Shown: positions 9,437 to 63,376 of the stretch, piece by piece
Position numbering within the stretch: the stretch's first letter is position 1
Layout: each line of letters starts with the position of its first letter
Virus record (IMG/VR): IMGVR_UViG_3300041964_000148
Origin: a virus
Lineage: Duplodnaviria > Caudoviricetes
Strand: one strand, 5' to 3'
DNA: 64,000 nt
Translations under genes and position numbers: made by a program
Notes under the pieces: generated by a model
Told to the model about the DNA's origin: nothing
Seen by the model: only the letters and a program-made list of their open reading frames with translations
Database searches by the model: none

Positions 9437-9988
9437 TTATAGGGCTTTTGGACGGGGGAACTTTGAACCCAAGAAACTCCTCATCATTGCTTGATTGCGT
9501 TTATCCCTGCTTTTGACCGATTCAGGTTCAGAAGGTGTGTCCGCCTCAAGCGCTTCCTCCATCACGGAGAACCGTGATGGAGGAATACTTAAGACAAAAG
9601 GGAAAGGGAGAGGTGACCTAGGAGGACTTAGCCTAAAAGAATGATTAGTATCGGCAATTTTGTTAATTGATCCCCCCTGCTCGGCTAAGGCAGTCAGCGC
9701 CCGCATTATGTTTCCCTGCGCGGCTATGCCAGCCATAGCCCGCCTTAGGGTTCCCTGTTCGACTATTTCAACCAACATTGCCCTTACAAACGATTGTGAT
9801 TCCCCAAGCGCCAAGGAGATTGAGGAAACTGTTTTGTTGAAATCGTAGCTGATTGAAACGGGTTCTGGAACAAACCTGCTAGGTGCGATCGCCCACCAAA
9901 CTCCATTGATCTTCTGCGGTGTATCCCAACCGTTGTTCACACACCAATCAAGGACTAACCTATCTAGTGCGTTTAGTTCTGATTCCAT
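9437..9988 (-). CDS. Hypothetical protein
   Basis: 183-aa ORF followed by a hairpin at 9404-9432. Confidence 0.55.
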   Translation of the reverse strand: MESELNALDRLVLDWCVNNGWDTPQKINGVWWAIAPSRFVPEPVSISYDFNKTVSSISLALGESQSFVRAMLVEIVEQGTLRRAMAGIAAQGNIMRALTALAEQGGSINKIADTNHSFRLSPPRSPLPFPFVLSIPPSRFSVMEEALEADTPSEPESVKSRDKRNQAMMRSFLGSKFPRPKAL

Positions 9989-10080
9989 GTCTGTTTATAA
10001 GCTATCTTCGTTTTCCCTAGAATACTTCAAATTAAGCAAAAGAATAGCCGCTTACACGGAAGCGGCTTTTTACTAGGAAT

Positions 10081-10124
10081 CCGCCAGAAAGCCCCGTACC
10101 CTTGTGGTCGGGGATGAATGGCGG
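10081..10124 (+). mobile_element. Orphan IS200/IS605-like left-end hairpin
   Basis: CCGCCAGAAAGCCCCG-tacccttgtggt-CGGGGATGAATGGCGG resembles the left ends at 32830-32880 and 53813-53858. Confidence 0.45.
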
Positions 10125-10321
10125 GAAAAAGAGATCGCACTTTTGCTCCGGAATATTCCGGAGCAAAAAAAATAACCGCCCACCAGAGGACGGTAAATGT
10201 ACTATGAGATGATCCCTATGTCGTGCTTGTAAACACTGTTGAAGTGTAGTGCATAACAAAAGGCGACAACCGTATTATACCTATTGATTGGAGTTTGACT
10301 TCTCTAGGTTGAACGCCAACA

Positions 10322-10591
10322 CTACTTCTTCTTGGGTCTACCACGGAGAACCGTGACGGACGAATCCAGCTTCTTTTTCTCAGGGAGCTGCTGAATATCA
10401 AAAATAAGCGATCGCTCTTTTAATTTCTCATTGCCCTTAAATATTTGGTTTAACAGCACTTTATTAACCTCCCAGCCAACCCCATAGTGCATCCCATCAC
10501 GAATAACGTGTTTAAGATCCTCCCATCCCAATGAGTGCATTCGATCTATTTCGGCTTTGCCTGAAACAGGGATAATGACAATATATTTCAT
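10322..10591 (-). CDS. Hypothetical protein with C-terminal RGRPKK (AT-hook-like)
   Basis: ATG ORF divergent from the terminase-like gene. Confidence 0.45.
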   Translation of the reverse strand: MKYIVIIPVSGKAEIDRMHSLGWEDLKHVIRDGMHYGVGWEVNKVLLNQIFKGNEKLKERSLIFDIQQLPEKKKLDSSVTVLRGRPKKK

Positions 10592-10627
10592 TGAACTAAC
10601 GGCTGAGGGGCAACTGGATAACGAACG

Positions 10628-11257
10628 ATGGCAAAGAAAAGGAAACGAACTAGCGGAGCGTCTGTTCCACCTCAGCCAGTTGGTAGACCGACGACACTAA
10701 CCAAGGAGCTGCAAGACAAGATAGTCGCTGCTGTAGCAGAAGGCGACTATCTTAGTGTCGCCTGTGAGCTAGTCGGAGTGCCAGGAGCAACAGGAAGAAG
10801 CTGGAAACACCAAGGATCTGGGAAGAGGCACGATCGCCCTGCCAATGAAGAGTTTGCAGCTTTCGCAACGGCTGTAGAGAAAGCTAAGGCTGAAGCTGCA
10901 CACGCAAGGGTTCAGCGAATAACAGAAGCGGCGCAAGGTCGGCGCATTATCCGCCAGAAGACTGTGACAAAAATTTCTCGTGACGCTGAAGGAAACGAGG
11001 AAACGGAGACTATAACAGAAATTGTTGAAACGACCAATTACGACTGGAGAGCTGATGCGTGGATGCTGGAACACCAATACCCTGATCTATGGGGTTCACA
11101 GCGAATGTCAGAGCTTGAGGCATGGAAAGTGCTTATTGAAGCTGGACAAGTGCCAGATGAGGTTATCGACGCCATCTTAGTTGGAGAGGAGGAACGGCGA
11201 TCGCGCATCCAAGCAGCTCTAAAGGAACCACAAGAATCGGGTTCTGAAGGTATGTGA
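10628..11257 (+). CDS. Putative terminase small subunit / HTH protein
   Basis: GRPTTLT.E..DKIV..V.EG....AC..VGV HTH and DWRADAWMLE..YP..WG motif. Confidence 0.6.
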   Translation: MAKKRKRTSGASVPPQPVGRPTTLTKELQDKIVAAVAEGDYLSVACELVGVPGATGRSWKHQGSGKRHDRPANEEFAAFATAVEKAKAEAAHARVQRITEAAQGRRIIRQKTVTKISRDAEGNEETETITEIVETTNYDWRADAWMLEHQYPDLWGSQRMSELEAWKVLIEAGQVPDEVIDAILVGEEERRSRIQAALKEPQESGSEGM

Positions 11258-11460
11258 TAAAATTGTGCAACTTTCTAATATACCAATAGTTGTAGAGCGC
11301 GAATGTATTGGAAAATATAAGCTATGTCTAAAGAGTGAGGAATGCGTAACAATTGGTGTGGATTCACTTACACTTTACGTAGAAATACGGATGGCTCAAG
11401 GTGTCTACAGGAGTAGCGTTTATATAAGTACGTGATCTACTGAAGTCTAAAAGCTAATCA

Positions 11461-11886
11461 ATGTTTATCTATCCGAGTAGTTTGAATACCAGCCATTCAG
11501 AACACTGGCGGGTTCTGCGCCAGTTTATTCTAGGCGGCGAAGAAGTCTATCTCACAGAGATAGAAGGAGATAACACATCCGGATATAGGTTCCAATATAT
11601 TTCTAATAGTGCGAGTTATCTATCGCAGTATTACCCTACAAGAGAAGCGGCAGTTGAAGGGTTGAACATAGCTCTGCTGCGATCGCTCGTCCATCGATCG
11701 CCTCACTCCCTTTTTGTGATTGATGGCACGGGGATTATCCTGTATCAATCCGAGAAAAATATTGGGCGATTTGGCTTAAAGCAGGGGAAAGATACTTGGG
11801 AGATTATTAAAACTAAAAAAACCTCTTGGATTGTCCAAGAGGTCTCTTTCAACCATTTATCTGTTTATCGAGAGGTAGATGGCTGA
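11461..11886 (+). CDS. Hypothetical protein
   Basis: 141-aa ATG ORF. Confidence 0.5.
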   Translation: MFIYPSSLNTSHSEHWRVLRQFILGGEEVYLTEIEGDNTSGYRFQYISNSASYLSQYYPTREAAVEGLNIALLRSLVHRSPHSLFVIDGTGIILYQSEKNIGRFGLKQGKDTWEIIKTKKTSWIVQEVSFNHLSVYREVDG

Positions 11887-12812
11887 CTATTACGGCGCAA
11901 GTCGAGGAGAACACTCGTCCAGTCGCCCTTGTAAATAACGGGGTCTTTATTATCAAGGAATATTGGCTGGGAGTAATCTTCCCAGCCTTTTATTTTGATC
12001 AGGACGAATGATGAGGCAACATAGTCGTCTTTGGTTAAAGAGACGCCCCGGTCGCCTTCTAGAACAAGGTTTAAGTTTTCTCCAATCCGTCCTTGATATC
12101 CATTCTCCTGTGCTGCTGTCCGAGGCTGCGCTGGCCTGCCCAGTCGATTCAAGGACTGTTCTAACCAATTCTTAAATCGATAGAACTCATCAAAATTAAA
12201 ATCCCCTACTTCCACTTCTTCTTGCTCTTTTGTCCTGCTTAATACGACAGATGGCGATGACACCGCCAGTCTATCACCGATTTCTGCTACTGAAGATAAC
12301 AGTGCCGTTCGCCCCCCTGGAGAGAGATGGCTCAACCTTTCTTTGAGAAGCTCAATTTCTGCTAACTCAAGAAGGTTGCGTTGAGGTTGGTTGTAGTTTG
12401 TAAGGACTGGAGGGGCTGGGGGGAAGAGAGCTTCTTCAAGTTCCGAAGCCTTATAAGGGCGGTTTTTGGACTTGTTCCACCAAAATCCAATGCGTACCAA
12501 GGCTTTCATCATTTCCGGATCGAAGGTCCGGCGGGCGTAGGACTTGCCTGTTCCTATGTGGAAGAATCGGTTGAGTTGGTGGCGGCTGTATTGAATCTCT
12601 TCCTCTTCGAGGGCGGAATTGATCCAATCTGTTGCCTCAGAAATGTTGCAGCATAAATTTTCTAGAGAATCTTGTACGATCTCTTGGAATAATTCAGTGT
12701 TTAATGTCATCATTCTCCTTCCCTGCTCACGAGGGATATTCAATTTGTCGTTTACTTTCATTATACGCTCCAACGCAAGCGCCCAATTGTAGCATTTAAC
12801 CGTTATTGGCAT
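11865..12812 (-). CDS. Hypothetical protein (possible regulator); start may be ~12713
   Basis: Long ORF divergent from nrdJ; AAGGAG SD before MMTLNT. Confidence 0.55.
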   Translation of the reverse strand: MPITVKCYNWALALERIMKVNDKLNIPREQGRRMMTLNTELFQEIVQDSLENLCCNISEATDWINSALEEEEIQYSRHQLNRFFHIGTGKSYARRTFDPEMMKALVRIGFWWNKSKNRPYKASELEEALFPPAPPVLTNYNQPQRNLLELAEIELLKERLSHLSPGGRTALLSSVAEIGDRLAVSSPSVVLSRTKEQEEVEVGDFNFDEFYRFKNWLEQSLNRLGRPAQPRTAAQENGYQGRIGENLNLVLEGDRGVSLTKDDYVASSFVLIKIKGWEDYSQPIFLDNKDPVIYKGDWTSVLLDLRRNSQPSTSR

Positions 12813-12882
12813 TTGCAGCTTAATGCGACCGAATTCCGTAAATTATGTCCTACAATTCGGTTGAGTACTCTTCCGGAAAATT

Positions 12883-14124
12883 ATGACCACTACACGAAAG
12901 AAAGACGCTTTCCCCACAGGGACAGCTTTGCCTGTGTTTTATCGGACATATAGCCGTGGGGGAAAGGAGTCTTGGTGGGACGTTTGTATTCGTTGCGTGG
13001 AGGGACTTGTTACGCTATCGGCAGGACACCTAAAAAAAGAAGAGCGATCGCTTCTTCTTAATTACGCACGAGAAATCAAAGCCCTGCCTTCCGGTCGCTG
13101 GCTTTGGGTTGGCGGCAAGCCTTGGGTAGAAAACCCTAAGAATTTCTCTGGGGCATATAACTGCACGAGCATCAATGTTAAGGCTTATGAGGATCAGTCT
13201 CCTTGGGCAGCCTTTGGCTGGCTTATGGAATTAGGGATGATGGGATGCGGCACCGGTGCCGTACTAGAACCAAAATACATTGACACTCTCCCACCTATTT
13301 GTAATATCCTCCAGACTAATATCCTGGGAGAGCCGGGGGAAGTTCACCCAAATGAGCGGCTAGAGGATACGGAATTTACTGTAAACCGAAACACGCTTTA
13401 TATCCTGGTGGGGGATTCGCGGGAAGCGTGGGTGGCAGCATACCAAATTATGTTAGAAGCGGCTTCTAACCCTAACCTGGGGCGGGAGCTGTTTGTCAAC
13501 ATCTATTTGGGCAACGTGCGCCCCTATGGTGAACAGCTCCAAGGTTTTGGAGGGGTCGCTAATCCAGCCAAGTTGGGTTGGATGTTTGGCGCGATCGCCG
13601 ACGTTACTAATCAAGCGGTTGGGCGACAAATGAATTCTTTAGAATGCTGTATGGCGATCGATATTGCAGCAGAGAATACTGTTGCCGGAAATGTTCGACG
13701 TTCTGCTGGGATGCGGCAAGGGAAGTACGACGATCCTAATTTTGTTGATGCCAAACTGGGGTTATATCTCCAAGATGAGGCTGGGGATTGGTATTTACCT
13801 GATGCTAGAAAGTCGGTTTTGAGAATTGCTAATCACACCCGCGTCTTCCACCACAAACCTACCTTAGAAGAGATCCAGGAAGCTGTTGCCAAGCAGTATT
13901 TCTCTGGGGAAGGGGCAATTATGTGGGCGGGAGAGGCAGTATATCGGTGCAATCGCGACTTAATTAGTGAAGGCGATCGCTCGACATTCCTGTATCTCTA
14001 TAATTTGGGCATAGAACGCGCCGAGGAGTTTTTAGCTGTTGCTTATCTTCGCTACCACGGTGTACCGTGTTCCGACGAGGAGCTGGAGCATCGAATGGAA
14101 AGATATGGGACAAATCCGTGTGGT
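12883..14124 (+). CDS. nrdJ: Class II (AdoCbl-dependent) ribonucleoside-triphosphate reductase, exon 1
   Basis: VFYRTYSR, PSGRWLWVGG, GAYNCTS, AGNVRRSA, ANHTRVF; ends NPCG. Confidence 0.92.
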
Positions 14125-16323: not shown

Positions 16324-16395
16324 CACAGAGGTTGGTGTTACCATTTATTCATGAGTTTAAGTTTGTGTAGCGTCGTAGCTATAACTTCTGCGAAT

Positions 16396-19644: not shown

Positions 19645-19767
19645 GTTACGTATCTATGTGTGGATACTACAATTGTAACATTTCAGTAATACACAAAAAC
19701 GTATCACGGTTCTCCGTGACGAGCGATATTTCAACATCCCCCCCTCAAGGGGGGATGTTAAGTGGAG

Positions 19768-31213: not shown

Positions 31214-31400
31214 CAGAACACCTCCGATGCGGGAAACTCAGTGTCCTTAGATCTGAGAGGAACGCACGGTAGCGGTTTTAACCGCCTACAGTCTTTAGAA
31301 TCCATATCCATAACCATCCTTTTGGTGAATTTGCTGACAATATTTATATTTTCTCCGTCACGGTTCTCCGTGATGAATGTAATGAACTGCTGCCAGTGCC

Positions 31401-32654
31401 TTACGGCTCAGGCAGTTTCTGACGCTTCTTTTCCCACGCTTGCTGAAAGCCTCCACAATGTTTAGTTGTGGGTTTTTCAGTAGAGGCTTGAGATCCACGT
31501 TTGTCGAGCGTCGTTCCAACGCCCGTTGCCCATATTAGGCAAACTTTAGCTGAGGCTACATCTCTGTCTTCGACACAGCCGCAAGGACATTGATGTAGTC
31601 GTTCAGCCAGTGTTTTAGGTTTGACTTGCCAGCAGTCAGGACATCGTTGAGAAGGCTTGAGTGTCTTAGTTGGAGCTTTCAGAAATACCCCATCAGCTTC
31701 ACCTAATTTGTACTCCAGCATTCCCCCCAAAATTCCCCAACCTACATCCAAAATGGAGCGGTTTAGCCCAGACTTCTGTCGCTTCCGCTTTCCCTTCTTG
31801 GCTTTTTTAGTCATCCCCTTGATGTTGAGTTTCTCTGTCACGACCATGCTGTTACTGCTTACTATCTGTGTCGTGACCTGATGCGCCCAGTCTTGACGTT
31901 GATTAGTCGCTTTGCGCTGCAACTTATTGACTTTAGACTGAGCTTTTTTCCAGCGTTTTGATCCCTTAATCTTTTTCTTGAAATTGGGGCTACGTTTCCG
32001 ACGCTTCTGTTTAGATGCCGCTCTGATTTTCTCTTGAGTTGCACCCAAGAAGCGAGGATTTTCTATTTTGGTTCCATCGCTACAAGCGACGGCTGTTAGA
32101 GTGCCAAAATCAATGCCAATTGCACCCGTTCCGGTTTCTCGGACTGGCTCACATTTGACGGTGATTGAGGCATACCATTTGCCTTGTCGGTACACGATGG
32201 TGCAAGTTGTTGGGATTCCCCAAGTTCTTGCCTTTCCTCTCATCTGAATTTGCCCTAAGTTAGACAGTTCCAGATAGCCGTTGTCACCCGTGGTGTGTGC
32301 TTTCCAACCAGGTGCCGCTGGGTAAGTCCATCCACTATAACGACGAATTGACTTGAATCGGGGGTATCCTCCCAAGCCTTTGAAGAACCGCTCGTAAGCC
32401 ATGTCAACCCGTTTAAGGGTAGCCTGTAGGGCTTGGCTTCCTAGCTCTTTGTACTCTGTCCAGACCGTCTTGAACTCAGGTAATGAGTTTTGTTGGTCGT
32501 AGTAGGTAACTGATTTCCCAAAACGTTGATATTGCGTCTTCTTGTTGTACAGCGCTGCATTATAAAGGTCTTTATGTAAACGCCTCCAATAGCTCAACTT
32601 TTGGGCTTGAGCAATGGAAGGATAAAGACGAAAGGTGCAACGACGGGTTATCAT
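31401..32654 (-). CDS. tnpB: RNA-guided endonuclease TnpB
   Basis: FRLYP HTH, RuvC D (GIDFG), E (VTEKL), D (DRDVAS), CPDC..CPCG. Confidence 0.92.
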   Translation of the reverse strand: MITRRCTFRLYPSIAQAQKLSYWRRLHKDLYNAALYNKKTQYQRFGKSVTYYDQQNSLPEFKTVWTEYKELGSQALQATLKRVDMAYERFFKGLGGYPRFKSIRRYSGWTYPAAPGWKAHTTGDNGYLELSNLGQIQMRGKARTWGIPTTCTIVYRQGKWYASITVKCEPVRETGTGAIGIDFGTLTAVACSDGTKIENPRFLGATQEKIRAASKQKRRKRSPNFKKKIKGSKRWKKAQSKVNKLQRKATNQRQDWAHQVTTQIVSSNSMVVTEKLNIKGMTKKAKKGKRKRQKSGLNRSILDVGWGILGGMLEYKLGEADGVFLKAPTKTLKPSQRCPDCWQVKPKTLAERLHQCPCGCVEDRDVASAKVCLIWATGVGTTLDKRGSQASTEKPTTKHCGGFQQAWEKKRQKLPEP

Positions 32655-32682
32655 GATGCCAGTATAACGTCAGAGTAAGGTC

Positions 32683-32826
32683 ATGAAGAAGCTAACTGTT
32701 CGATTTTCTGATAGCGAGTACAAGAGCCTGACTCAACAGAGTATTGATGTTGAGCGTTCTCTGAACGAGATTGTCCGAGAAGCCGTTAGAGAATATATAA
32801 AGAATCAGACTTCCCCACAGCATTGA
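32683..32826 (+). CDS. 47-aa ribbon-helix-helix protein inside the IS
   Basis: MKKLTVRFSDSEY..L......ERSLNEIVREAVREY; below the ORF-track cutoff. Confidence 0.65.
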   Translation: MKKLTVRFSDSEYKSLTQQSIDVERSLNEIVREAVREYIKNQTSPQH

Positions 32827-32854
32827 TTCGCTTTCATCCCCCAGTGCCTTCGGC

Positions 32855-33982
32855 TCAGGGGGATTTCCCGCTCACACTTGTTAAGCGTTCTTTGAGTACA
32901 GCAAATGCGATCGCTCCCACCTGAGGGACAATGGCATTTCCCAATACAGATACCTGGCTGTTCATGAGACCTCGTGCCTCCATATACTCTTTTAGAGTTT
33001 GGTCAAACTCTTGCTTGAGTTCTTGATATTCGCTTGCGCCCTCTCCTTCAAGGCACTCAGCTTGTCGATCAAATTTTTTGTGGTAGGCTCGCTTGAGTTG
33101 ATCATACTCTCTTCGATCTGCTGGTGATAGGGCTTTAATTTCTCTTGGAGAAAGTTCAACCGAGCCACGAGGCTCCCTTGTAAAACTGGGCATTGTGGAT
33201 GCGGTGAGCCACCCATCAAGGTCTGGGTGTCGCAAGAGATATCCGCCCAAGTTGGCGGGTAGCCCATCATCGCTGCCACAAAGTAAGGGTTGAGGGTAGT
33301 GTCCTTTGTCGTTAAATTCAGTAGGGAGTACTTTCTCCTGTTTTTTGCCTCCGCCACTGAGCCGCCCCGTGAGAGACCGGCTGTTGGCGTAGGCAATAAT
33401 CCATATTCGCGCTCGAAGGTGGGTTCCTCCCACTCCAATGCGGAATCTTTTTTCTTTACCTCGGCTAGAGCCTGTTTCCAAATGGGCGCATGGTACAGTT
33501 CCCCATTCGACATCGAACCCCAGCTCGTCCAGGTCTCGCAAAATTCCCTTGAAAAATTCTCCAGATTCGGAAGATAGCAATCCAGGGACGTTTTCCAGCA
33601 CCGCCCATCTGGGCTGAACTTCGCGAAGGATTCGCCGAATCTCAGGCCATAAGTCCCGCTCGTCTTCCGAAGCCTTTTTCTTGCCGAGGACTGCGTGGGG
33701 TTGGCAAGGGAAGCCGCCGGAGATTCCGTCGATCCTAGGGACTCCCAATTGTCGAAGAGATTCAACTGTAACATCGCATACATTTTTAATTAAAGGAATG
33801 CCAGGGAACCTAAGTGACAACAATTCTTGGCAGTAATCATCATTATCACATACAGCAACTGTCTCAAGTCGAAGATCATTGTCATCCCCTTCTCTACTAA
33901 TGGATTCTGCCAGGAGGAATCCTCCTCCTCCAGAACACAAATCCAACACGTAGTGGGTGTTCTCGTCCTGTAATAGCTTCAT
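32855..33982 (-). CDS. C5-cytosine DNA methyltransferase, alpha chain (motifs I-VIII, X)
   Basis: DLCSGGGG, GGFPCQ, ENV, R.RIWI, GNAIVP; no motif IX in this frame. Confidence 0.85.
   Translation of the reverse strand: MKLLQDENTHYVLDLCSGGGGFLLAESISREGDDNDLRLETVAVCDNDDYCQELLSLRFPGIPLIKNVCDVTVESLRQLGVPRIDGISGGFPCQPHAVLGKKKASEDERDLWPEIRRILREVQPRWAVLENVPGLLSSESGEFFKGILRDLDELGFDVEWGTVPCAHLETGSSRGKEKRFRIGVGGTHLRARIWIIAYANSRSLTGRLSGGGKKQEKVLPTEFNDKGHYPQPLLCGSDDGLPANLGGYLLRHPDLDGWLTASTMPSFTREPRGSVELSPREIKALSPADRREYDQLKRAYHKKFDRQAECLEGEGASEYQELKQEFDQTLKEYMEARGLMNSQVSVLGNAIVPQVGAIAFAVLKERLTSVSGKSP
32992..33774 (-). CDS. Nested alternate-frame beta chain (TRD plus motif IX)
   Basis: LLPTPTA...LNPYFVAAMMGYPPTW; conserved with 34083-35003. 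Confidence 0.72.
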   Translation of the reverse strand: MLQLNLFDNWESLGSTESPAASLANPTQSSARKRLRKTSGTYGLRFGESFAKFSPDGRCWKTSLDCYLPNLENFSREFCETWTSWGSMSNGELYHAPIWKQALAEVKKKDSALEWEEPTFEREYGLLPTPTAGLSRGGSVAEAKNRRKYSLLNLTTKDTTLNPYFVAAMMGYPPTWADISCDTQTLMGGSPHPQCPVLQGSLVARLNFLQEKLKPYHQQIEESMINSSEPTTKNLIDKLSALKERAQANIKNSSKSLTKL

Positions 33983-35848: not shown

Positions 35849-36719
35849 AATTTGTCTCCGTCACGGTTCTCCGTGATGAACTATCTAACTGGTATTTTTT
35901 GATCAATAAATCCAACTTGTCGGCGATAAAGTTGGGATAGCACATCTCCTGTGCGCCATCAAAGACCGTCCATAACTGCCACCAAGCCGTTAGATCCATC
36001 TCTCCTTCGCGCTCTAGAAAAATATCGGCTTCCTCTTCCACCCCATAGGCATTAAGGCTGTAGAACAAAGGGGCAGAACAGCGATCGCAAACTCTCCGAC
36101 CATCGGCTATTTCCAGGCTGAACCTGTGAGGCTTGATTGTGTAGTAGGAACTACTCCACCAATACCCCCACTGGCAAAGTCTCCACAGAGTATCTGCAAG
36201 CTTATAATGCTGCCGGGATAGCAACATACAGGCGTAAATCAAGCTACTCCGAGTTCGGGTTATGAAACTACTTGCACAATCCCAGCAGTATTCTTCCCCA
36301 GTATCTTTGAGGAACCGCTGGTCGAGGTAATAAGGGTCTGAGATATTCACCCCCCTGGATAGCTCCTGAAGTCGCTCAAAAGCTTCCTCAAGTCTAGACA
36401 CTCGCTCTGGTGATGCATTTCTCTTGGGATAAACATCATGCTGCAACCAAACTTTGGCTGCCCTAATATCTACGATCAGGTCTTTGACTAGGTAAAGGAA
36501 CCTGTCCCCCGCAGGGATTCTTGGAGGGGTGATTTGTTCACGCAGTAGTTGCGATCGCGTTGCGAGGTTTGCTAAATCAAACCCACTCAAATCCAACCAA
36601 GGGTATAGGGGTTCATAGGTGCGAACCTTCCGCCGGGATTCTTCCTGCTCAACTATTTCAATTTCGGAACTTATTCGGTTTAATTGCCGGATTAACGTGT
36701 CTAAGACTGGTGATCTCAT
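35841..36719 (-). CDS. Hypothetical protein with CxxC pairs
   Basis: CWDC, CDRC; operon member. Confidence 0.6.
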   Translation of the reverse strand: MRSPVLDTLIRQLNRISSEIEIVEQEESRRKVRTYEPLYPWLDLSGFDLANLATRSQLLREQITPPRIPAGDRFLYLVKDLIVDIRAAKVWLQHDVYPKRNASPERVSRLEEAFERLQELSRGVNISDPYYLDQRFLKDTGEEYCWDCASSFITRTRSSLIYACMLLSRQHYKLADTLWRLCQWGYWWSSSYYTIKPHRFSLEIADGRRVCDRCSAPLFYSLNAYGVEEEADIFLEREGEMDLTAWWQLWTVFDGAQEMCYPNFIADKLDLLIKKYQLDSSSRRTVTETNYE

Positions 36720-36753: not shown

Positions 36754-38352
36754 TTAGAACTCGTAGATTGCTATTATTCTTCCCTGCTCGTCATAGTCGG
36801 CACAGTACTCCTCGTTTTCCTCAATAAACTTCTGAGCTTGGGTTTGGACAGATATATCAACTCGAAACACCGAGTCTTCCAGCGCTGCTTTTAATCGGTC
36901 GAGAACTGCCTCAGGTGAAGATGGTGGCGGAGCCTTGGGCAAAGTTCGCTTCCGAGCTAGCTCTGCTATCTGCTGGAATATTAGCTTTGAACCCGCAGCG
37001 GCGTGTTGTTGATCTTCCTCTGTTATTTGCTTTGGTTTCCACTCGTTATGATTTTCTACGCCTTGTGGCAGGACAGGGGTTTTTGTAATGTCTCGTCCTG
37101 ACAGTGTTTCGGATTTGGATACCCCTGTTTGAGGCATTGGTGATCGCACAGCTTCTAGATTGGTCTCTAGATACTCCTTCTCATCGTCAGGTACAACTCC
37201 ACCACTGGCTATACGCTGTGCAGCACTTTCATAGTGGTGGTTGAAGGTTAGAGAGTAGGTTCTCCACCTCAAAGAAATTTTGTCTGGTTCATTAAAGAAA
37301 TTACTAATGACAGCTTCTTCGGCATCATAAACGGACGAGTATGTCCACTTCTTCATCCACTCCTGAGCTTTCCATCTGACAAACTCACCCTTAAACTCGT
37401 TATTTCGATTTAGCCAGGGTGTCTCACCTTCACAGTACACAAGGTTAGGATGCACCTCGCGCCTTCGATCCTGCCTCCACTTTGTAGATTCAGAGACTTT
37501 TTTATCTGTTATCACAGCAGCGGCGGAATTTTTATCTTCACCAGGAGTTTCTATTGCTTGCAAAGGAATGACCTCAATTTGTGGATCTTTTGACAGGGTG
37601 TTGCTTGGAGTTTCTTCTTCCGGTTCCGGAATCTCAAATCCAAATTGCTTTTCTTTCGCAGCCCTAGGGTTATTGCCGATAGATCTTGGATTGGTTCCAA
37701 CAGCCCTAGGGTTATTACCGATAGCTCTTAAATTAGTTCCATCTTCTCTTTTTCCTGATTTACTTCCCCCTTCTTTTTTTTCCCCGCTTGCGGGGTTAGG
37801 GGGGTTGATCTGATGAATAGATCTAATTTCTGATCTATTCATAGATGATGGTCCACCCAGCGGATGCTCCATCATCTCCTGGGTGGATGGTCGATCATCC
37901 TCTGAGTGGATACTCTCATTTTCAGGATCATCCATTTTTGGCACTATCTGATTTCTCGACGTTACAGCCGTTTTAGAGGCATTCATGATTAACTCACCGA
38001 TTGTCTCTGGATTGGGTCTGTAAAACTTAGTTTGATTCCATTGACCCGATAAAAACTGACCCGATATCAAGTAACCCTTATCTTCAATATTTAAAAGTAG
38101 CCGTTGAAGTTTGCGGGGGTTCCCCAAGCACGGATACATCTCACTCCACTCTTGGTAAGTGGCAGCAGTCCACCACTCGTCATCGTGGTAGTACTTTTCC
38201 CTGCCAGTGATCGCATTGTTTTGACACCAATCTTCTATGATTTCAAGTAGCAAAGCCTCAAGTACTCCAATTTGGTTCGCCATTCCCCACACCAGCTTGG
38301 TAAAAGGAAGACGATGGAGGGACTTGTAGGCAGCTACAGCAGCCGTAGTCAT
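36754..38352 (-). CDS. Putative phage replication initiator
   Basis: N-terminal wHTH-like region (W...TY.EW....P.....R.L..L...GYL...TKFYR) followed by a low-complexity, repeat-bearing linker. Confidence 0.55.
   Translation of the reverse strand: MTTAAVAAYKSLHRLPFTKLVWGMANQIGVLEALLLEIIEDWCQNNAITGREKYYHDDEWWTAATYQEWSEMYPCLGNPRKLQRLLLNIEDKGYLISGQFLSGQWNQTKFYRPNPETIGELIMNASKTAVTSRNQIVPKMDDPENESIHSEDDRPSTQEMMEHPLGGPSSMNRSEIRSIHQINPPNPASGEKKEGGSKSGKREDGTNLRAIGNNPRAVGTNPRSIGNNPRAAKEKQFGFEIPEPEEETPSNTLSKDPQIEVIPLQAIETPGEDKNSAAAVITDKKVSESTKWRQDRRREVHPNLVYCEGETPWLNRNNEFKGEFVRWKAQEWMKKWTYSSVYDAEEAVISNFFNEPDKISLRWRTYSLTFNHHYESAAQRIASGGVVPDDEKEYLETNLEAVRSPMPQTGVSKSETLSGRDITKTPVLPQGVENHNEWKPKQITEEDQQHAAAGSKLIFQQIAELARKRTLPKAPPPSSPEAVLDRLKAALEDSVFRVDISVQTQAQKFIEENEEYCADYDEQGRIIAIYEF
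37659..37742. repeat. Tandem 21-bp units (ABAB, 2 x 42 bp) encoding G(T/N)N(P/L)R repeats
   Basis: CAGCCCTAGGGTTATT(G/A)CCGA / TAG(A/C)TCTT..ATT.GTTCCA. Confidence 0.8.
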
Positions 38353-40391: not shown

Positions 40392-41237
40392 ATGCAAACC
40401 AAAAAGAATTCCTCAGCGGCAGACCGCAAGGATGTTGCCTTGCTCTTTACGTCGGATTTAATCGAAGCCCTTCTCAAAGGAACGAAAACCCAGACCCGCA
40501 GAATAATCAATCCTCAGCCTGTCCTAGAAGACGGGATTTGGATGTGGAAGCGAAAAGGTGAAACCCCCATTCCGTTAGTGAATCAATCCTTGTCCATGCT
40601 GGCAGAAAGTCGGTATCAGGTAGGTGATCGCCTCTACGCTAAGGAGTCGATGTATCTCGACAAGGACGATCTCGGCGAGGGCGACTGTTGGTATTACGAT
40701 TTAGATAAGAAGAAAGTTATGGTTTCGCGGGAAGACGAAGGAGCCATGCTTGCCTGGGCGCACCATAAGCAGACGACTACTCAAAGCGCTCTATTCATGC
40801 CGCGATGGGCAGCCCGAACTTGGAGGGAGATTGCAGAAGTTAGCGTTCAGCGTATAGGTGATATCAGCGAGGAAGATGCGATCGCCGAAGGGATTGTCCC
40901 ACTGATATACAGGGCTTCAGCCGAAGGACACTATGTTCGCTACTATCATTACGAGTATCAGACGTACCATACAACCTACGACGGGGACGGGGCGCGGCAA
41001 AGCTTCCGAACACTCTGGAACCAAATCAACGGAAAATGGACAGCCATTCGGAAGAACATGGACGGCGGCGAAACCAAAAAAAAGGAGTTGTCGCATTATA
41101 TTTCGTACCCTTGGAATGAGGAGGATATTAAGGACAAACCCGATGTTCGTAACAAAAATATCCCTTTTCTCGCTTGCCCGAACCCTTGGGTCTGGGCGAT
41201 AAAATTCACCACGGTTCTCCGTGACGAAGGAAAATAA
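40392..41237 (+). CDS. ASCH/PUA-like phage protein
   Basis: L.G.KTQTRR, GDRLY.KE, FMPRWAAR, DA.AEG, NPWVW. Confidence 0.7.
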   Translation: MQTKKNSSAADRKDVALLFTSDLIEALLKGTKTQTRRIINPQPVLEDGIWMWKRKGETPIPLVNQSLSMLAESRYQVGDRLYAKESMYLDKDDLGEGDCWYYDLDKKKVMVSREDEGAMLAWAHHKQTTTQSALFMPRWAARTWREIAEVSVQRIGDISEEDAIAEGIVPLIYRASAEGHYVRYYHYEYQTYHTTYDGDGARQSFRTLWNQINGKWTAIRKNMDGGETKKKELSHYISYPWNEEDIKDKPDVRNKNIPFLACPNPWVWAIKFTTVLRDEGK

Positions 41238-45219: not shown

Positions 45220-45251
45220 AAAACTCATCACGGTTCTCCGTGATGAGTTTT
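45220..45251. terminator. Bidirectional terminator built on the dispersed palindrome
   Basis: AAAACTCATCACGG-TTCT-CCGTGATGAGTTTT between convergent genes. Confidence 0.7.
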
Positions 45252-48644: not shown

Positions 48645-48771
48645 ATCTTGGAAACCTTTGATCGCGTAAAATAACAACAACTTACAAAACCCGCTGGGTG
48701 ATTTATTCACCCAGCGGGTTTTGCTTTTTCTCATCACGGAGAACCGTGACGAACACCATATTCTTATAAAA

Positions 48772-53858: not shown

Positions 53859-54033
53859 ATAAAAAGTTGCCAATAAGCGATCGCACACCCTTCCTTCCAT
53901 CACAACCGACAAACCCACCGAAGCTGCATTCGGTGGGCTTTTGCTTTCATCACGGAGAACCGTGACGATGAAAAGTCACTTTTAAACTTTAGTACTTCGT
54001 TATAATACATATAGACGTTATTTAAAGCAAATC

Positions 54034-54564: not shown

Positions 54565-54653
54565 TAACTTCGCGATCACTTGAAATAACCCCCCGAAAAT
54601 ATTTTTCGGGGGGTTATTTTTTTCGCCACGGTTCTCCGTGATGAACAACACAA

Positions 54654-57806: not shown

Positions 57807-57875
57807 AACTAAGGTTGCAAAATGTTACGATAATAGTACGCCCCTATCGGGCAACATTCTATTCAAAGCAAAACT

Positions 57876-58856: not shown

Positions 58857-58920
58857 GGCTAACAAAAGGTAAGGAATATCTTGTCGCCAACTATCGACCA
58901 ATCCAACAAGAGGACAAAAC

Positions 58921-59148
58921 ATGGATAACCCAAGAGTATCAAAAGTAAAAATCGAGCTGCAAATTGACTTTACAGATCCTGTTGAAGGCGCGGAACAAGT
59001 GATGGAAGGCACTTGTGAAGCACTCCGAAAGCTATTGCAAGAGCGTGGGCTAATTCTTGATGAAATAGAAATCGGTACAATGGATTTTCGCGAATCGGGG
59101 AAACATACCTCGATATGGCAGTTAAACACTAAGCCCTCCGAAAATTAA
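58921..59148 (+). CDS. Hypothetical protein with FTDP domain
   Basis: GAGGA SD; I.FTDP...E.V. Confidence 0.55.
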   Translation: MDNPRVSKVKIELQIDFTDPVEGAEQVMEGTCEALRKLLQERGLILDEIEIGTMDFRESGKHTSIWQLNTKPSEN

Positions 59149-59271
59149 GCCGATCACGCTTAAAAACAAACCCGCCTAAGTAATCATTTGGGCGGGTTTT
59201 GTATTTGCATAAATGTTAAAATCAAAGTATGGCTACAAGCCTAATTAGTGCAGCCTTTTTAAAGCAAAACT

Positions 59272-59868
59272 ATGAGCGAACCAAAAGTATCGGAAGCGGA
59301 AATTGTAGGAATGGAAGTTGTTGTGAAGATCGTCTTCACAGATCCAATTCAGGCTCATAATACGGGTGAAGTCTTGGAGCATATTACTCAAGCTCTCCAA
59401 CGTGAGATAGCTAATTGCGGACTTACTCCTGATGACGAAGAATCCTCTGTCGAGAGTGTTTCCTTGGAATACTCAGGAAGTAAAACCCTTGTGTGGAGTT
59501 GTTCTAGTTCTACTGAAAATATCGAAGATGCCAACGAAAAAAGTTTTAGCATCCCAGCCGAAGCGTACTCGGATGATTGTCTTGTAAAGATAAAATTTGA
59601 CGCAGTGGACTACATCAAAAATGCTGATGTAGAAGCATTACAAGCCTTAATAAATTGTGGTTGGGGTGGTGACTACCCAGGCGATTATGTCGCTAAATAT
59701 TACGAAGATGGGGTACTCAAACCCCTATTCGACTACCTTGACTCCATTAAGGACATCCACTCTAAAAAAGATCAGCGTGGCTTTGAGTGCTACGTAGATG
59801 GGTACCAAGCACAGAAGTGGCTAGCAGCTAATCGCCTCGAAGTATTCAATAAATTGAGTCCCTTCTAA
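59272..59868 (+). CDS. Hypothetical protein with FTDP domain
   Basis: AAAGCAAAACT leader. Confidence 0.65.
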   Translation: MSEPKVSEAEIVGMEVVVKIVFTDPIQAHNTGEVLEHITQALQREIANCGLTPDDEESSVESVSLEYSGSKTLVWSCSSSTENIEDANEKSFSIPAEAYSDDCLVKIKFDAVDYIKNADVEALQALINCGWGGDYPGDYVAKYYEDGVLKPLFDYLDSIKDIHSKKDQRGFECYVDGYQAQKWLAANRLEVFNKLSPF

Positions 59869-60020
59869 ATTGAAGTGGAGCAAATATTCGAGGACTGAAG
59901 ATTTATTTAGCGATCGCGTTGCCTCTACTTAGGGTAGAATGACCCTGAGAAAACCAACAAAGCCCGTCGGGTGATTTATTCACTCGACGGGCTTTGTCGT
60001 ATTACAGAGGTTTTTACGCT

Positions 60021-60464
60021 GTGCCTCGTTATTCCAATACACTCGAAGTCCGCTTTAATGTAGTCGAGGAGCATCGCTGGGAAGTTTACCAGGAGATGCC
60101 CAGCGTTGCTCAGTTGGGTGCCAGTGAGGCTCTCAAGCGCGACGGCTGGGTCTTTTTTGTCCGAGACAGCGATCGCATCGTTCCGTATTATTTCGATGCC
60201 AGTAGCCTAACTATTTACCCATTTACAGGCAATGTTGTCGTTGCCCCTCGGAAACTTAGGACACGCATCGGCAATGGGACAGATCGAGAATTTATCGTTA
60301 ACCACGGGTTCAACTCTTTGGATGTTGATGCGTCGGCATGGGAGTTTGTCGCAACTCGTAGGTACAGAATTGAATGTAATATCTTTAAGGTAGATGAAAA
60401 TAGTATAGGTTTTGAGTTTTCCGAGCCGCCGACACAGGATGCTATCGAAGTTTTGATCGGTTAG
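60021..60464 (+). CDS. Putative tail-fibre-associated protein
   Basis: IG.G....F.V.H.....DV...F..PP domain; GTG 60021. Confidence 0.5.
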   Translation: MPRYSNTLEVRFNVVEEHRWEVYQEMPSVAQLGASEALKRDGWVFFVRDSDRIVPYYFDASSLTIYPFTGNVVVAPRKLRTRIGNGTDREFIVNHGFNSLDVDASAWEFVATRRYRIECNIFKVDENSIGFEFSEPPTQDAIEVLIG

Positions 60465-60478
60465 ATTAAGGCACAAAA

Positions 60479-60513
60479 AAAGCCCCCACCAGGATTTCCT
60501 GGTGGGGCTTTTT
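60479..60513. terminator. Bidirectional terminator
   Basis: AAAGCCCCCACCAGG-attt-CCTGGTGGGGCTTTT. Confidence 0.75.
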
Positions 60514-60548
60514 AATATTTAGTGCCTGTTATTTGGCTTCAAAAAAGT

Positions 60549-61532
60549 TTAAGCACTGGCTACAGTTTTCTTAATTACTGTAAGAACTTCTTCGGGGGAG
60601 AGTAGAGATGCATATCCCTGTTCACTTCCTCCTACTTCAGAGTTCCCACCCCAACGCTTCTCAACCTCTTCCTCTCCCCGCTTTTGGGATTCAAGGAAAT
60701 TGAGTTCGTCAAAGACAGCTTGAGAATTCCAAGTCGCCTCTGGCGAATAGCGGCCAATAGTGTACTTGAGATGTGGCTCAAATTTGCCATTCGCCGTAAA
60801 TTCGGGGTTGTATGCGATCGCATACTTGCCGAAGCGGTAGGCATAACCTGTCGCCCCAATATGCGCTGATTCTACGACAGCGATGTCGCCATCAACGGCA
60901 ATGAGTTTGGATGCCTTGAATGCATCCATTTTTGTTTTGATGCCCTTTTCGCGGCTACCCTCTGGTTCAACACCAGCGATAAGCCACTTCAGGACATTTA
61001 CAACCTTTTGCTTAACTCCGACAGAATCGACTGCTCGTTCACGCACATAGGAGTGCATGGCAATTAGCGGATCTTTCTGGAGTTTTTCTGCATACTCCTC
61101 TGAAGACATTTCTGTCTGTGATTCTCGTACCCAGCCCCCCTTGTCGGATTTGTCCACAAGGGCAATTCGTTGAACGAAATCTCCATCAGGCTGGACACCC
61201 AGCTCATCAAAGCTTAACTGTCCATGCTTTTTAAGGAGGACTGCGGCGGCGCAGTACGCATCCAGATCTTCTTTGCCGATAAATACGGCACTGTCATGAG
61301 GTACTCGCCAGAAATGTCCGTCTGTGAACATTTCGATGGCAAAGGCCGCCGCGCTATATGGCTTATTACTTCCATCATGCTGAGGATCGATATTGAAATC
61401 CAAGGCATCAACTGCCCAAGGATAGGCTTCGGCTCCAAAGCATAAGCAGTCATATTCCTTCTTGATGCGCTCAATGAGAGCGACATCTTCGGCTTGATTG
61501 CGGGGGTTTAGGACGTAGAATGTAATGCTCAT
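60549..61532 (-). CDS. Hypothetical protein, possibly DHH/DHHA1-like phosphoesterase
   Basis: ATG 61532 after the AAGCAAAACCC leader; DLD and WGG...GGS motifs; function weakly supported. Confidence 0.55.
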   Translation of the reverse strand: MSITFYVLNPRNQAEDVALIERIKKEYDCLCFGAEAYPWAVDALDFNIDPQHDGSNKPYSAAAFAIEMFTDGHFWRVPHDSAVFIGKEDLDAYCAAAVLLKKHGQLSFDELGVQPDGDFVQRIALVDKSDKGGWVRESQTEMSSEEYAEKLQKDPLIAMHSYVRERAVDSVGVKQKVVNVLKWLIAGVEPEGSREKGIKTKMDAFKASKLIAVDGDIAVVESAHIGATGYAYRFGKYAIAYNPEFTANGKFEPHLKYTIGRYSPEATWNSQAVFDELNFLESQKRGEEEVEKRWGGNSEVGGSEQGYASLLSPEEVLTVIKKTVASA

Positions 61533-61572
61533 GGGTTTTGCTTGATCACGGAGAACCGTGACGATAGTTTTT

Positions 61573-61625
61573 GCTCCCTCACTATTTTTCACCCAGGCTT
61601 GGGACTGGCGTCGGCTAGTTTAAGC
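61573..61625 (-). ncRNA. Twister ribozyme (type P1)
   Basis: GCU-UAA-ACUA-GC-CGACG-CCAG-UCCCAAGC-CUGG-GUGAAAAA-UAGU-GAGGG-AGC: P1, P2, P4 and both pseudoknots. Confidence 0.85.
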
Positions 61626-61665
61626 GGCTCCCCCAAGGGGAGCCTAACTTTCATTAAACTGAGAT

Positions 61666-62154
61666 TTACTTTGATAACTTATTTACCCATTGAAGCTGTG
61701 GGTTTTGCTCTCTAAAGGCAGAATCCCATTTATATCGCCCCATTTCTGGATGGTATGGAAAGTCATTTTCCCACCACACAGAGATACATTTTTTTAGCGA
61801 TTCTAAGGTTATCATTCCTTCTACTGATGGAACACTATACCCAGAAGCCGCAGATGACTGTATTTGGGAACAAGGTATTGCTTTGAAATTAATTCCCCGC
61901 TCTAAACATCGCGAGATAATTTCCCCTAAAGCAAATATGGAATCTCTTCCAAAATCTAAAGATAGGCAATTTTGAGATTCTTGATATCGAACCTGAGAAG
62001 TGTAACTAAGAAGACTGCTATCTGGTAACTGTGTCGCAGTTCCATGATAATCGTCGTCTTCGTCTATTTTGGGAGCAAACGAGGGAAATACCTGAAATAC
62101 TGCTTCTTTCGCTAGCTCTGAATTTTCTAAGAATAAAAATCTGGCTGAAAACAT
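61666..62154 (-). CDS. Hypothetical protein
   Basis: GCAAAACC leader; flanked by twisters. Confidence 0.65.
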   Translation of the reverse strand: MFSARFLFLENSELAKEAVFQVFPSFAPKIDEDDDYHGTATQLPDSSLLSYTSQVRYQESQNCLSLDFGRDSIFALGEIISRCLERGINFKAIPCSQIQSSAASGYSVPSVEGMITLESLKKCISVWWENDFPYHPEMGRYKWDSAFREQNPQLQWVNKLSK

Positions 62155-62174
62155 GGTTTTGCATTATAAATTTT

Positions 62175-62226
62175 GCTCCCTCTGCATTTTTATCCAGGCT
62201 GGGGACTGGCATTGGCTGCATTAAGC
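62175..62226 (-). ncRNA. Twister ribozyme (type P1)
   Basis: GCU-UAA-UGCA-GC-CAAUG-CCAG-UCCCCAGC-CUGG-AUAAAAA-UGCA-GAGGG-AGC; P2 covaries with the other copies. Confidence 0.82.
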
Positions 62227-62251
62227 GGCTCCCAAGGGAGAGCCTTTACAT

Positions 62252-63277
62252 TTATATGAGCGCTTCGTGGGCGATCGCATTAATGTAAGCGATCGCATCC
62301 TCGTAGGTTGGGCGAGATGGGTACTCGTGAACCCCTATTTTTAGCTCAAACAGGGAAACTGGTTCCCCGAACGGGTCATTTGGGTTCTGCACCCTCGGAC
62401 TTTTGCTTGTCGAGTGGCAGTATCGATCAAATAGGATGTATTTTTCTAACGTCCCTCCTTGGAGGAAGCGCTCAACGTCTTCCTCAAATGTTCGGTCTTT
62501 TGGAATAGAGTATTCTACTCCTTGAGTCCAAAAAGACTTGGACTGAACAAGGGGCATTGCTAACTTTACATGGCGTTTGCCAAGTTCAGTTGCCGCTAAA
62601 TCCCAGAAAACTGCCAAGGCTTGTAGTAACTCTTCCGAGAGATCTTCTCGGTCTAGATTTAAACTGGACAACGGATGCCCAATAACTTCATGATTGCCGT
62701 ATCCTGTCCAGCGACAGTAATCCAACAAAAATTCCTCAGGGTTTTCGGGGACAACCCATCCCCATTTAATCGCTAGAAGAAGACCTTCTGCGATCGCCCA
62801 TCCTACCGAATTGTTGGGGCAGTGAAGCAATCGCTGCGTCAGTCGCCCCTCTTGGGCGGCTTCAAGACTGTCATTGTTCTGGTAGCTTGTCCAGCACCAG
62901 GCCCAAGCTACAAGAGAACTTCGTAAATGTGCATGGGCGAAGTTGGGTGTATAGTTTAGGGCAATTACATCGAATATTGTTGTCCAGTAGCCCCACTCTG
63001 CTATTTCCGCCAACTTCCCCCATCCCATTTGGTTATGGGGATCGGGCAGATCGTATATCGGCTTCTCGAATATCGCGTATTCGCTTATTCCAGTTGCAAT
63101 TCGTGCAATTTCTCGCACCTTTTCCGGATGTTCGTCGTCGCAGCAGGCAAGCAGATATCTTGCCGCGAATGACAAGTCACTTCCGTCTTCCAACGCTGCT
63201 ATCTTCTCGATCTCTTCAATATGGCGATTGTTGATAATTGAGGCGATCATTCGTTCGATTTTTTCTTCAGATTGCAT
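62252..63277 (-). CDS. Hypothetical protein
   Basis: AAGCAAAACC leader; flanked by twisters. Confidence 0.7.
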   Translation of the reverse strand: MQSEEKIERMIASIINNRHIEEIEKIAALEDGSDLSFAARYLLACCDDEHPEKVREIARIATGISEYAIFEKPIYDLPDPHNQMGWGKLAEIAEWGYWTTIFDVIALNYTPNFAHAHLRSSLVAWAWCWTSYQNNDSLEAAQEGRLTQRLLHCPNNSVGWAIAEGLLLAIKWGWVVPENPEEFLLDYCRWTGYGNHEVIGHPLSSLNLDREDLSEELLQALAVFWDLAATELGKRHVKLAMPLVQSKSFWTQGVEYSIPKDRTFEEDVERFLQGGTLEKYILFDRYCHSTSKSPRVQNPNDPFGEPVSLFELKIGVHEYPSRPTYEDAIAYINAIAHEALI

Positions 63278-63376
63278 GGTTTTGCTTGATCACGGAGAAC
63301 CGTGACGATAGTTTTTGCTCCCTCACTATTTTTCACCCAGGCTTGGGACTGGCGTCGGCTAGTTTAAGCGGCTCCC
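63278..63376. repeat. 99-bp identical direct repeat of 61534-61632
   Basis: Covers leader, palindrome, twister and one hairpin arm. Confidence 0.9.
63317..63369 (-). ncRNA. Twister ribozyme (type P1)
   Basis: Identical to 61573-61625. Confidence 0.85.

Follow-up and report, generated by a model that had tools for sequence, protein, structure and literature searches.

Dispersed CACGGA-NN-TCCGTG palindromes in a very large cyanobacterial phage-like element and its relatives: candidate binding sites for a phage-encoded protein

We analysed a stretch of 64,000 nucleotides (the window) from the virus record IMGVR_UViG_3300041964_000148 (Duplodnaviria; Caudoviricetes), through which a 14-bp palindrome-like core, CACGGAGAACCGTG, is dispersed in 12 exact copies, six on each strand. 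The window encodes terS-like and endolysin-like proteins, a ribonucleotide reductase split by a LAGLIDADG gene, three C5 methylases, DpdA, RNase HII, Rep_1, YoeB and two TnpB proteins. The same sequence is found in several metagenome assemblies at 99.98-100% identity, including contigs of 237 and 243 kb that probably represent the whole genome. The long contigs are recorded as ENA ERZ27286124 k141_176067 and JGI 3300018910 Ga0193598_1000012. Just beyond the window lie a third TnpB gene, a sigma-70 gene, and a gene for an XRE-type helix-turn-helix (HTH) protein divergent from a ribbon-helix-helix (RHH) gene, the latter with one palindrome copy in its 5' leader. An actin-like partition gene is present in one relative. 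This gene content suggests a temperate or plasmid-like lifestyle.

The 12 matches stand against an expectation of 0.00 and zero matches in 100 shuffles of the window, and the core is the most frequent 14-mer of the window. The sole other strongly over-represented word is HIP1 (GCGATCGC), which is unrelated to the palindrome. When up to two mismatches to the core were allowed, a single extra match was obtained at 14056 (CACGGTGTACCGTG) and no one-mismatch copies, and a 16-mer search with up to three mismatches added nothing beyond the 12 exact copies; thus, the copies in the window are either perfect or absent. The extra match (14056..14069) is a perfect palindrome, CACGGT-GT-ACCGTG, in an exon of the ribonucleotide reductase gene, and its membership in the family is uncertain. 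The flank consensus extends the site to about 22 bp (TCAT-core-ACGA), with a recurrent A versus C asymmetry at the -2/+2 flank positions that goes with the direction in which the AGAA centre lies. The perfect arms of copies 1 and 7 reach 14 bp, and copies 4 and 5 have 26 nt in common (TTCAT-core-ACGGAGA). The form of the site in the window phage is fixed and asymmetric, CACGGA-GA-ACCGTG. Two further exact copies occur downstream of the window (L351 14112 and 20491), one of them inside a gene, and none in the 10 kb between these copies and the window. The resulting density is ~1 site per 5 kb of the ~240-kb phage-like genome. These data agree with the original prediction, made from the letters of the window alone, that 12 copies, six per strand, far exceed chance, that the asymmetric AGAA spacer is fixed (it is so in every window-phage copy), and that the palindrome is distinct from HIP1, which is abundant when counted separately. 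The same prediction had the outer arms varying roughly symmetrically: the flanks do vary, but the recurrent -2/+2 asymmetry speaks against a simple symmetry.

The copies are strongly biased toward gene boundaries. Eight of the 12 are intergenic, though intergenic DNA makes up only 9.9% of the window (P=3e-6); three more fall in the final 12 codons of a gene, and one is internal, so that 11 copies are either intergenic or in a gene tail (P=1e-8). The internal copy 1 (9563..9576, plus strand), with its 14-bp arms CCTCCAT.../...ATGGAGG, lies inside a 183-aa open reading frame (ORF) of the minus strand, where it is read as SRFSVM. The tail copies are copy 2 (10342..10355, plus strand), which falls within the final 11 codons (VTVLRG) of a minus-strand gene of 89 aa and stands 270 nt upstream of the terS-like gene; copy 5 (35862..35875, minus strand), likewise within the final 11 codons (SRRTVTE), here of a 292-aa gene, with the next start codon 13 nt further on; and copy 6 (41210..41223, minus strand) in the last 9 codons of a 281-aa gene (TTVLRD), 13 nt before the start of a C5-methylase gene.

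Among the intergenic copies, copy 3 (19705..19718, minus strand) is located 16 nt past a G/C hairpin and is followed by a T-run, and copy 4 (31359..31372, minus strand) has an insertion sequence (IS) comprised of tnpB1 and an RHH gene inserted immediately 5' of its core. Copy 7 (45229..45242, minus strand) forms the core of a bidirectional terminator with 14-bp arms (A-run/T-run) between convergent genes. Copy 8 (48735..48748, plus strand) begins 11 nt past the stem of a strong bidirectional terminator (48685-48723), copy 9 (53951..53964, plus strand) starts 13 nt past a terminator stem (53914-53937), where tnpB2 and a 176-aa gene diverge, and copy 10 (54627..54640, minus strand) is flanked by convergent genes, with a C6/G6 terminator hairpin 13 nt away. 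A G+C-rich stem with a T-run on the transcribed strand, as in an intrinsic terminator, is seen at copy 7 and weakly at copy 3; simple intrinsic terminators were rejected as an explanation of the family, copies 8, 9 and 10 being placed beside separate terminators. On the minus-strand mRNA, copy 11 (61547..61560, plus strand) lies 11 nt past a twister-P1-like element and 14 nt before an ATG, and copy 12 (63291..63304, plus strand), likewise 11 nt past such an element, belongs to the same duplicated cassette with an unrelated gene downstream. This cassette of ~100 nt (twister, motif and leader) is identical in its two copies before two unrelated genes. The contexts thus include intergenic DNA, gene 3' ends, one terminator (copy 7) and two twister leaders (copies 11 and 12), all of which had been recognized at the outset.

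Relatives were found via proteins whose genes carry or adjoin a copy. Two of them are referred to as phage 3 (a 40-kb contig; loci L343, L345 and L347) and phage 4 (loci L355 and L356). At the end of the 281-aa gene, the exact motif is kept at the same place in L341 (71% protein identity), and a centre variant, CACGG-AACT-CCGTG, at the same place in L342 (54% identity). Phage 3 contains CACGG-AGAT-CCGTG twice, once per strand, and CACGG-ATGT-CCGTG once. Phage 4 shares synteny with the window in the region of the initiator, 292-aa, methylase and RNase HII genes. Within 19.7 kb it contains ten copies, of which seven have the centre AGTT/AACT, two ACTT/AAGT and one ATAT, and also two copies of the variant TGCGG-AACT-CCGTG. 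In total, 31 perfect-arm sites from the window phage, L341, L342 and phages 3 and 4 have identical arms CACGG/CCGTG and a varying centre (AGAA, AGAT, ATGT, AGTT, ACTT or ATAT), and neither a compensatory arm change nor G.U variation was seen among them. The general form of the site in the relatives is CACGGA-NN-TCCGTG.

The site is kept at three orthologous junctions across ~46-52% protein divergence. At the tail of the 292-aa protein (copy 5; L355 9712 in phage 4), S/P-R-x-S/T-V is found in all five homologues, with the DNA confirmed for L355; copy 4 is the ortholog of the phage 4 site upstream of RNase HII (L355 10869); and the third junction is the above tail of the 281-aa protein. The orthologous phage 4 sites differ from those of the window in their centres, and their flanks are unrelated. 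Long-term purifying selection acts on the half-sites, and the centre is lineage-specific. Conservation in relatives had been proposed as a check in the original prediction, and the motif is indeed present there, including at orthologous junctions.

Several side observations concern the centre and other dispersed repeats of these phages. Core positions 7-10 read GAAC/GTTC in the window phage and phage 4, and GATC in phage 3; these words resemble the known phosphorothioation consensus, and the likeness is probably a coincidence. A distant relative has its own exact 19-mer, GCTGAG-CAAATTT-CTCAGC, three times in the ~29 kb read (L336 631, 6373 and 11842), on both strands and in coding as well as intergenic DNA, with a variant centre AAAATTT at L340 18646. 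Phage 3 has a second family, TCCCAG-GATA-CTGGGA (L347 8615, 10705 and 14516), a partial copy of which replaces the palindrome at the end of its 281-aa homologue (L343 ~10795).

In the window and the relatives together, at least nine sites have a start codon 11-15 nt beyond their end (copies 5, 6, 11 and 12, the L342 site, L345 9491, and L355 4851, 9712 and 10869), and a Shine-Dalgarno-like GGAGG often follows two bases after the motif (NN-GGAGG). Copies 8, 9 and 10, located 11-13 nt from strong terminator stems, share their layout with the site at L345 17270. The orientation of the AGAA centre has no relation to the gene strand, with ~5 copies AGAA-sense and 6 TTCT-sense relative to transcription, and the six plus and six minus copies are unrelated to transcription direction, as the first inspection had suggested. 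Owing to the flank asymmetry, the hairpin would be much more stable in the TTCT sense (-13.1 versus -8.6 kcal/mol for AGAA), but the mRNA shows no preference for the stabler strand. One interpretation of the positional bias is selection for locations that tolerate a fixed 14-bp word.

Comparison of orthologous places allows us to follow the gain and loss of individual sites. Where phage 3 has a site before the homologue of a 156-aa gene, the window reads TACAGAGGTTTTTA, of equal length and with 7 of 14 positions different in a region of 79% identity. Where phage 4 has a site between the initiator gene and a 293-aa gene, the window reads ACAGAGGTTCATG. In both of these relics the arms have CpA in place of CpG. 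A comparison of two metagenome strains over 14.4 kb revealed a sole difference, G->A at 48746 (L325 11913), which falls in copy 8 and changes CCGTG to CCATG, again a CpG transition. The CpG->CpA changes may reflect C5 methylation by the phage methylases. The sole insertion-like case is that of the two twister leaders, which are ~19 nt longer than the third junction of this kind. Judging from these comparisons, the sites arise and decay by substitution, without insertions or deletions, and not by transposon-like insertion.

The palindrome is not a repeat of host chromosomes. An 18-mer pattern, RTCACGGAGAACCGTGAY, that covers 9 of the 12 window copies was searched in one genome per species of 185,579 prokaryotic species, yielding 86 isolated matches and never more than one per contig; no record titled cyanobacterium was among them, the only match in this phylum being a Melainabacteria metagenome-assembled genome. 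The general form, CACGGANNTCCGTG, was sought together with a reversed control pattern in 401 genomes drawn evenly from Cyanobacteriota. It occurred in 15 of the 401 genomes, at most twice in each, and the reversed control in ~22 genomes (counted from table rows), so the general form is at chance level in this phylum. A density on the host chromosome similar to that of the phage, the possibility raised in the initial analysis, is thus matched by none of the sampled prokaryotic or cyanobacterial genomes. Sequence databases of viruses gave a similar picture: megablast of 24 kb of the window against GenBank phages gave no match, the 14-mer had only single chance matches in viral contigs among the matches listed, and the 18-mer only single matches in viral contigs and, among the matches listed, in metagenome contigs. 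None of the loci from the 14-mer and 18-mer searches and the species-genome matches, as fetched, is related to the window by blastn. A search for related loci in viral contigs with a 956-aa protein as query gave no match.

We conclude that the palindrome is most likely a protein-binding site on DNA. Invariant arms without covariation, a lineage-specific centre and free orientation point to a dimeric protein that reads half-sites in duplex DNA. The centre is invariant in the window phage and would appear as AGAA or UUCU at random in RNA, which places the constraint on the duplex; a hairpin acting in RNA would show covarying stems and a conserved loop, and the opposite is seen. The temperate or plasmid-like gene content, along with the site located in the RHH leader, opposite the XRE-type HTH gene, led us to choose a silencing or insulating operator as the tentative role. 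In this leading proposal, to which we give somewhat less than an even chance, the palindrome is a double-stranded DNA site of a dimeric protein encoded by this phage or phage-plasmid-like group, acting as a genome-wide silencing or insulating operator. The ancestral site would have been the 14-bp palindrome CACGGA-NN-TCCGTG, from which the window phage would have derived its fixed asymmetric CACGGA-GA-ACCGTG with preferred flanks TCAT/ACGA. Sites would be retained where they are least harmful, namely in intercistronic spacers, in last codons and just past terminators, and the bound protein would act on transcription across the genome, keeping the element's many operons silent or insulated, much as at the C1 operators of phage-plasmid P1, the Cluster A stoperators or the 12 KorB sites of RK2. 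Of the suggestions made in the original prediction, a dimeric-protein site is favoured by the invariant half-sites, the variable centre and the free orientation, whereas a centromere of the parS/KorB type finds no support, as no ParB-like protein was found among the ~110 ORFs screened in or near the window.

Several observations weigh against the operator proposal. The binding protein was not found: Pfam and PHROG screens of the ~110 ORFs returned generic candidates only (the 47-aa RHH protein, a 240-aa XRE-HTH protein, an 88-aa RHH protein and the terS-like HTH protein), none of which can be linked to the motif. Most sites overlap no recognisable promoter, and several are located between convergent genes, where an operator of transcription initiation would have no purpose. 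All window-phage copies agree in the spacer and in ~4 bp of flank, which a symmetric dimer does not need; this uniformity implies either an added copying or homogenising process, or a reader with extended asymmetric specificity. The placement 11-15 nt before at least nine starts, often with NN-GGAGG, could mean a role at the mRNA level. Finally, the arms of the second phage 3 family, TCCCAG-GATA-CTGGGA, represent two complementarity-keeping changes from CACGG/CCGTG, which also fits a hairpin. The other dispersed families, the uniform window copies and the breakpoint at copy 6 described below keep the RNA-hairpin and selfish-palindrome explanations alive.

Individual proteins of the phage were considered as the reader. 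The 532-aa protein (36754-38352, minus strand) resembles a replication initiator or DnaD in its N-terminal domain, and its C-terminal part is conserved. The N-domain is swapped among relatives (P0001, P0002 and phage 4), and the protein was rejected as the reader because the window phage and phage 4 have the same arms but different versions of this domain. Rep_1 (3830-4876, minus strand) is a full-length HUH rolling-circle initiator of the pC194/pUB110 type (E=2e-80) that is kept in phages 3 and 4. A CTTGAT-containing sequence adjoins rep at 3815-3828 and resembles the nick site of the pC194 family; with this nick-site-like sequence beside its own gene and the palindrome absent there, Rep_1 was rejected as the reader and the palindrome as its origin. 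A 13-nt hairpin, CGTGTAATACACG, occurs twice near rep (3842-3854 and 3061-3073). TnpB1 was dismissed as a general reader, the likely target-adjacent motif (TAM) being absent from the copies other than copy 4. The 292-aa Cys-rich protein always has a site in the tail of its gene; its AlphaFold model (pLDDT 45.7) is unusable, and no homology was found to the same-position protein of a phage with a different motif. No homologue of the 240-aa XRE-HTH protein was found among the partial relatives.

The first alternative is that the element acts in RNA, as a small hairpin at cistron boundaries, situated at 3' ends or just ahead of the ribosome-binding site. Such a stem, equal in either orientation, might be bound or cut by a stem-specific protein, as in the logic of Csy4, or might serve as a RiboJ-like insulator or stabiliser. 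The start-proximal sites with their NN-GGAGG, the two copies following twister-like ribozymes in the duplicated leader cassette, and the 14-bp stems of copies 1 and 7 are in line with this explanation, as are the processing of at least one operon of the phage by ribozymes and the differently sequenced hairpin of phage 3 at the orthologous end of the 281-aa gene. We nevertheless regard an RNA-level role as unlikely, if still worth serious attention. The arms show neither covariation nor G.U variation in the 31 sites, and what would be the loop varies between lineages and, where it is invariant, is AGAA or UUCU at random; the stabler strand is not preferentially transcribed. In addition, a copy within a long ORF would lead to cutting or hindrance of the very mRNA that carries it, and some copies are placed just past strong terminators, where little RNA is expected.

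The twister-P1 matches are located at gene junctions on the minus strand (61572-61626, 62174-62227 and 63316-63370) and are full length, with 44-48 bits against a gathering score of 67 and E-values of 1e-7 to 6e-9; the Rfam scan of the window at gathering scores gave no match. A recurrent leader, AAGCAAAACC(C)ATG, stands directly before several start codons (61530-61546, 62155-62170 and 63278-63290; L351 20515-20533), where it takes the place of a Shine-Dalgarno sequence. Another hairpin, GTGAAGATCGTCTTCAC (58239 and 59323), was rejected as a dispersed element since it sits in paralogous coding sequence.

A selfish or homogenised palindrome would be nicked or cut site-specifically and repaired from another copy by a homing-like short-patch conversion, so that the copies stay uniform and older sites are overwritten, with any function being secondary. 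This would account for the asymmetric centre and flank preference shared by the window copies, in both of which the orthologous phage 4 sites differ, for the 26 nt common to copies 4 and 5, and for copies that are perfect or absent, with no relics of 1-3 mismatches. Where only the relative has a site, the 14 bp of the window are more diverged (7/14) than their 79%-identity flanks, and the only single-nucleotide polymorphism of the 14.4-kb strain comparison falls in a copy. On the other hand, sites are gained and lost without indels or target duplications, no nuclease is linked to the motif, several centres exist side by side in phage 4, and the arms are kept at orthologous places over a long divergence, which argues for a function. 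On balance, this explanation appears rather improbable.

The sites might also be recombination junctions for the exchange of gene cassettes between related phages, comparable to PeSL cassettes, 'boundary sequences' or integron attC sites. The 281-aa gene (40400-41200) is a cassette 60-80% identical to that of L341 in a background of 92-100%, and copy 6 lies exactly at its right edge: the identity between the window and L341 jumps from 60-80% to 98-100% within ~6-10 nt of this copy. A methylase gene follows directly after copy 6 in the window and in L341 and is missing from this place in L342 and L343. In phage 4, methylase genes are bracketed by sites, and sites generally sit at gene ends. However, copy 6 is the one clear breakpoint of this kind, as the motif is absent from the other two breakpoints between the window and L341 (~40400 and ~39140), and gene boundaries are the expected breakpoints anyway. 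Moreover, with ~40 identical repeats oriented both ways, deletions and inversions would be promoted as well, and no recombinase is linked to the motif. We consider cassette exchange at the sites doubtful. A combined scheme, in which a phage enzyme binds the palindrome and cleaves or nicks it, repair from other copies homogenises the ~40 sites, and the breaks favour cassette swaps between related phage-plasmids in an integron-attC-like or homing-like manner, seems to us equally questionable.

That the sites form a distributed centromere or a condensation system (parS/ParB or KorB type) is very unlikely. The density of ~1 per 5 kb and the palindromic form resemble the 12 KorB sites of RK2, and the element has plasmid-like genes, but no ParB/Srx-domain protein was found among the ~110 ORFs of the ~82 kb read. 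Least credible are REP/RAYT-type elements (repetitive extragenic palindromes and their associated transposases) or end remnants of IS200/IS605 (PATE-like), which, like the REP-like mobile hairpin of the original prediction, could appeal to three TnpB genes in or near the window, to copy 4 abutting the right end of one IS and to a Y1 transposase in phage 3, but are disfavoured by the gain and loss of sites through substitutions without length change, by the lack of a Y1 transposase or RAYT in 82 kb of the phage read, by 4 of the 12 window copies being in coding sequence, by the other hairpins carried by the IS ends (CTGAGCCG(T)AAGGCACTG; a C5/G5 hairpin then ATGAAAGC), and by the phage 4 comparison, in which copy 4 is older than the adjoining IS insertion.

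This insertion sequence, IS-1 (31373-32862, minus strand), contains tnpB1 and a divergent gene for the 47-aa RHH protein, and its insertion point is between a methylase gene and copy 4. In its terminal hairpins, CTGAGCCG(T)AAGGCACTG, the outer stems differ and complementarity is kept. Since IS-1 adjoins copy 4 on its 5' side, the guide of TnpB would start within the palindrome or shortly ahead of it. Between copy 4, which has a remnant Shine-Dalgarno and start region, and the start codon of RNase HII, the window has ~130 nt extra compared with phage 4 (31214-31345, minus strand); this segment has no Rfam match.

Dispersed sites of this kind have several precedents. The KorB operators (OB) of RK2 and the C1 operators of P1 comprise ~12-20 near-identical sites per 60-94-kb replicon, or ~1 per 5 kb, through which many operons of a plasmid-like element are placed under a single global regulator. 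In contrast to the palindromes, which are mostly found at cistron junctions or past terminators, the C1 operators are asymmetric and overlap promoters, and neither a ParB-family nor a C1-like protein was found in the phage ORFs screened. REP sequences and their composite forms (REPINs) are likewise short conserved species-specific palindromes at gene ends and beside terminators in both orientations; they are 20-40 nt long, imperfect and extragenic, frequently occur in pairs and are moved by a Y1 HUH enzyme, whereas the palindrome is a unit of 14-22 bp that also occurs in coding tails and is gained and lost without indels.

Among phage systems, the stoperators of Cluster A mycobacteriophages are ~20-35 dispersed, lineage-specific sites, mostly in short intergenic gaps, that co-evolve with their reader and silence the prophage, but they are asymmetric 13-mers, bound by a monomer (a gp71-type repressor) and oriented with transcription (PMC9283540, PMC3029335). 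The palindrome is (quasi-)palindromic and follows no orientation rule, and thus is not an asymmetric site oriented with transcription. The start-associated sequences (SAS) and extended SAS (ESAS) of Cluster K are similar in being conserved short motifs a few bases upstream of many start codons; SAS are asymmetric and strictly start-linked, whereas only a part of the palindromes precede starts (PMC3203893). The closest likeness is to the Cluster O mycobacteriophages, which have 34 copies of the 17-bp TGTTCGG-NNN-CCGAACA, with binding of a dimeric protein predicted and the function unknown (Cresawn et al. 2015, PMC4351075). Both families occur in tens of copies with invariant arms, a short, mostly uniform asymmetric centre (TTT/AAA in Cluster O) and free orientation, and both are mostly intergenic or at gene ends and not tied to promoters, with about one-third of the Cluster O copies inside genes (PMC4351075). 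The two differ in host and sequence, in the higher density in Cluster O (1 per 2 kb), and in that no link to rearrangement was reported there, whereas one mosaic breakpoint coincides with a site here (PMC4351075). With many copies, invariant arms, free orientation and a mix of intergenic and intragenic places, the palindrome belongs descriptively to the class of dispersed dyad-symmetric phage repeats.

Perfectly conserved dispersed palindromes are known from a few phage groups, notably Cluster O, where they have lacked an explanation for a decade, and are found here in very large cyanobacterial phage or phage-plasmid-like elements. To the Cluster O picture this work adds the conservation of arms across diverged lineages, lineage-specific centres, persistence at orthologous places and decay by CpG transitions, and it narrows the question to which protein reads CACGGA-NN-TCCGTG. 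In metagenomes, the palindrome can serve as a marker of this phage group. Should the reader be a nuclease or a recombination factor, the sites would represent a new route to phage mosaicism; if it is a global silencer, they would show how a ~240-kb element with many operons stays quiet.

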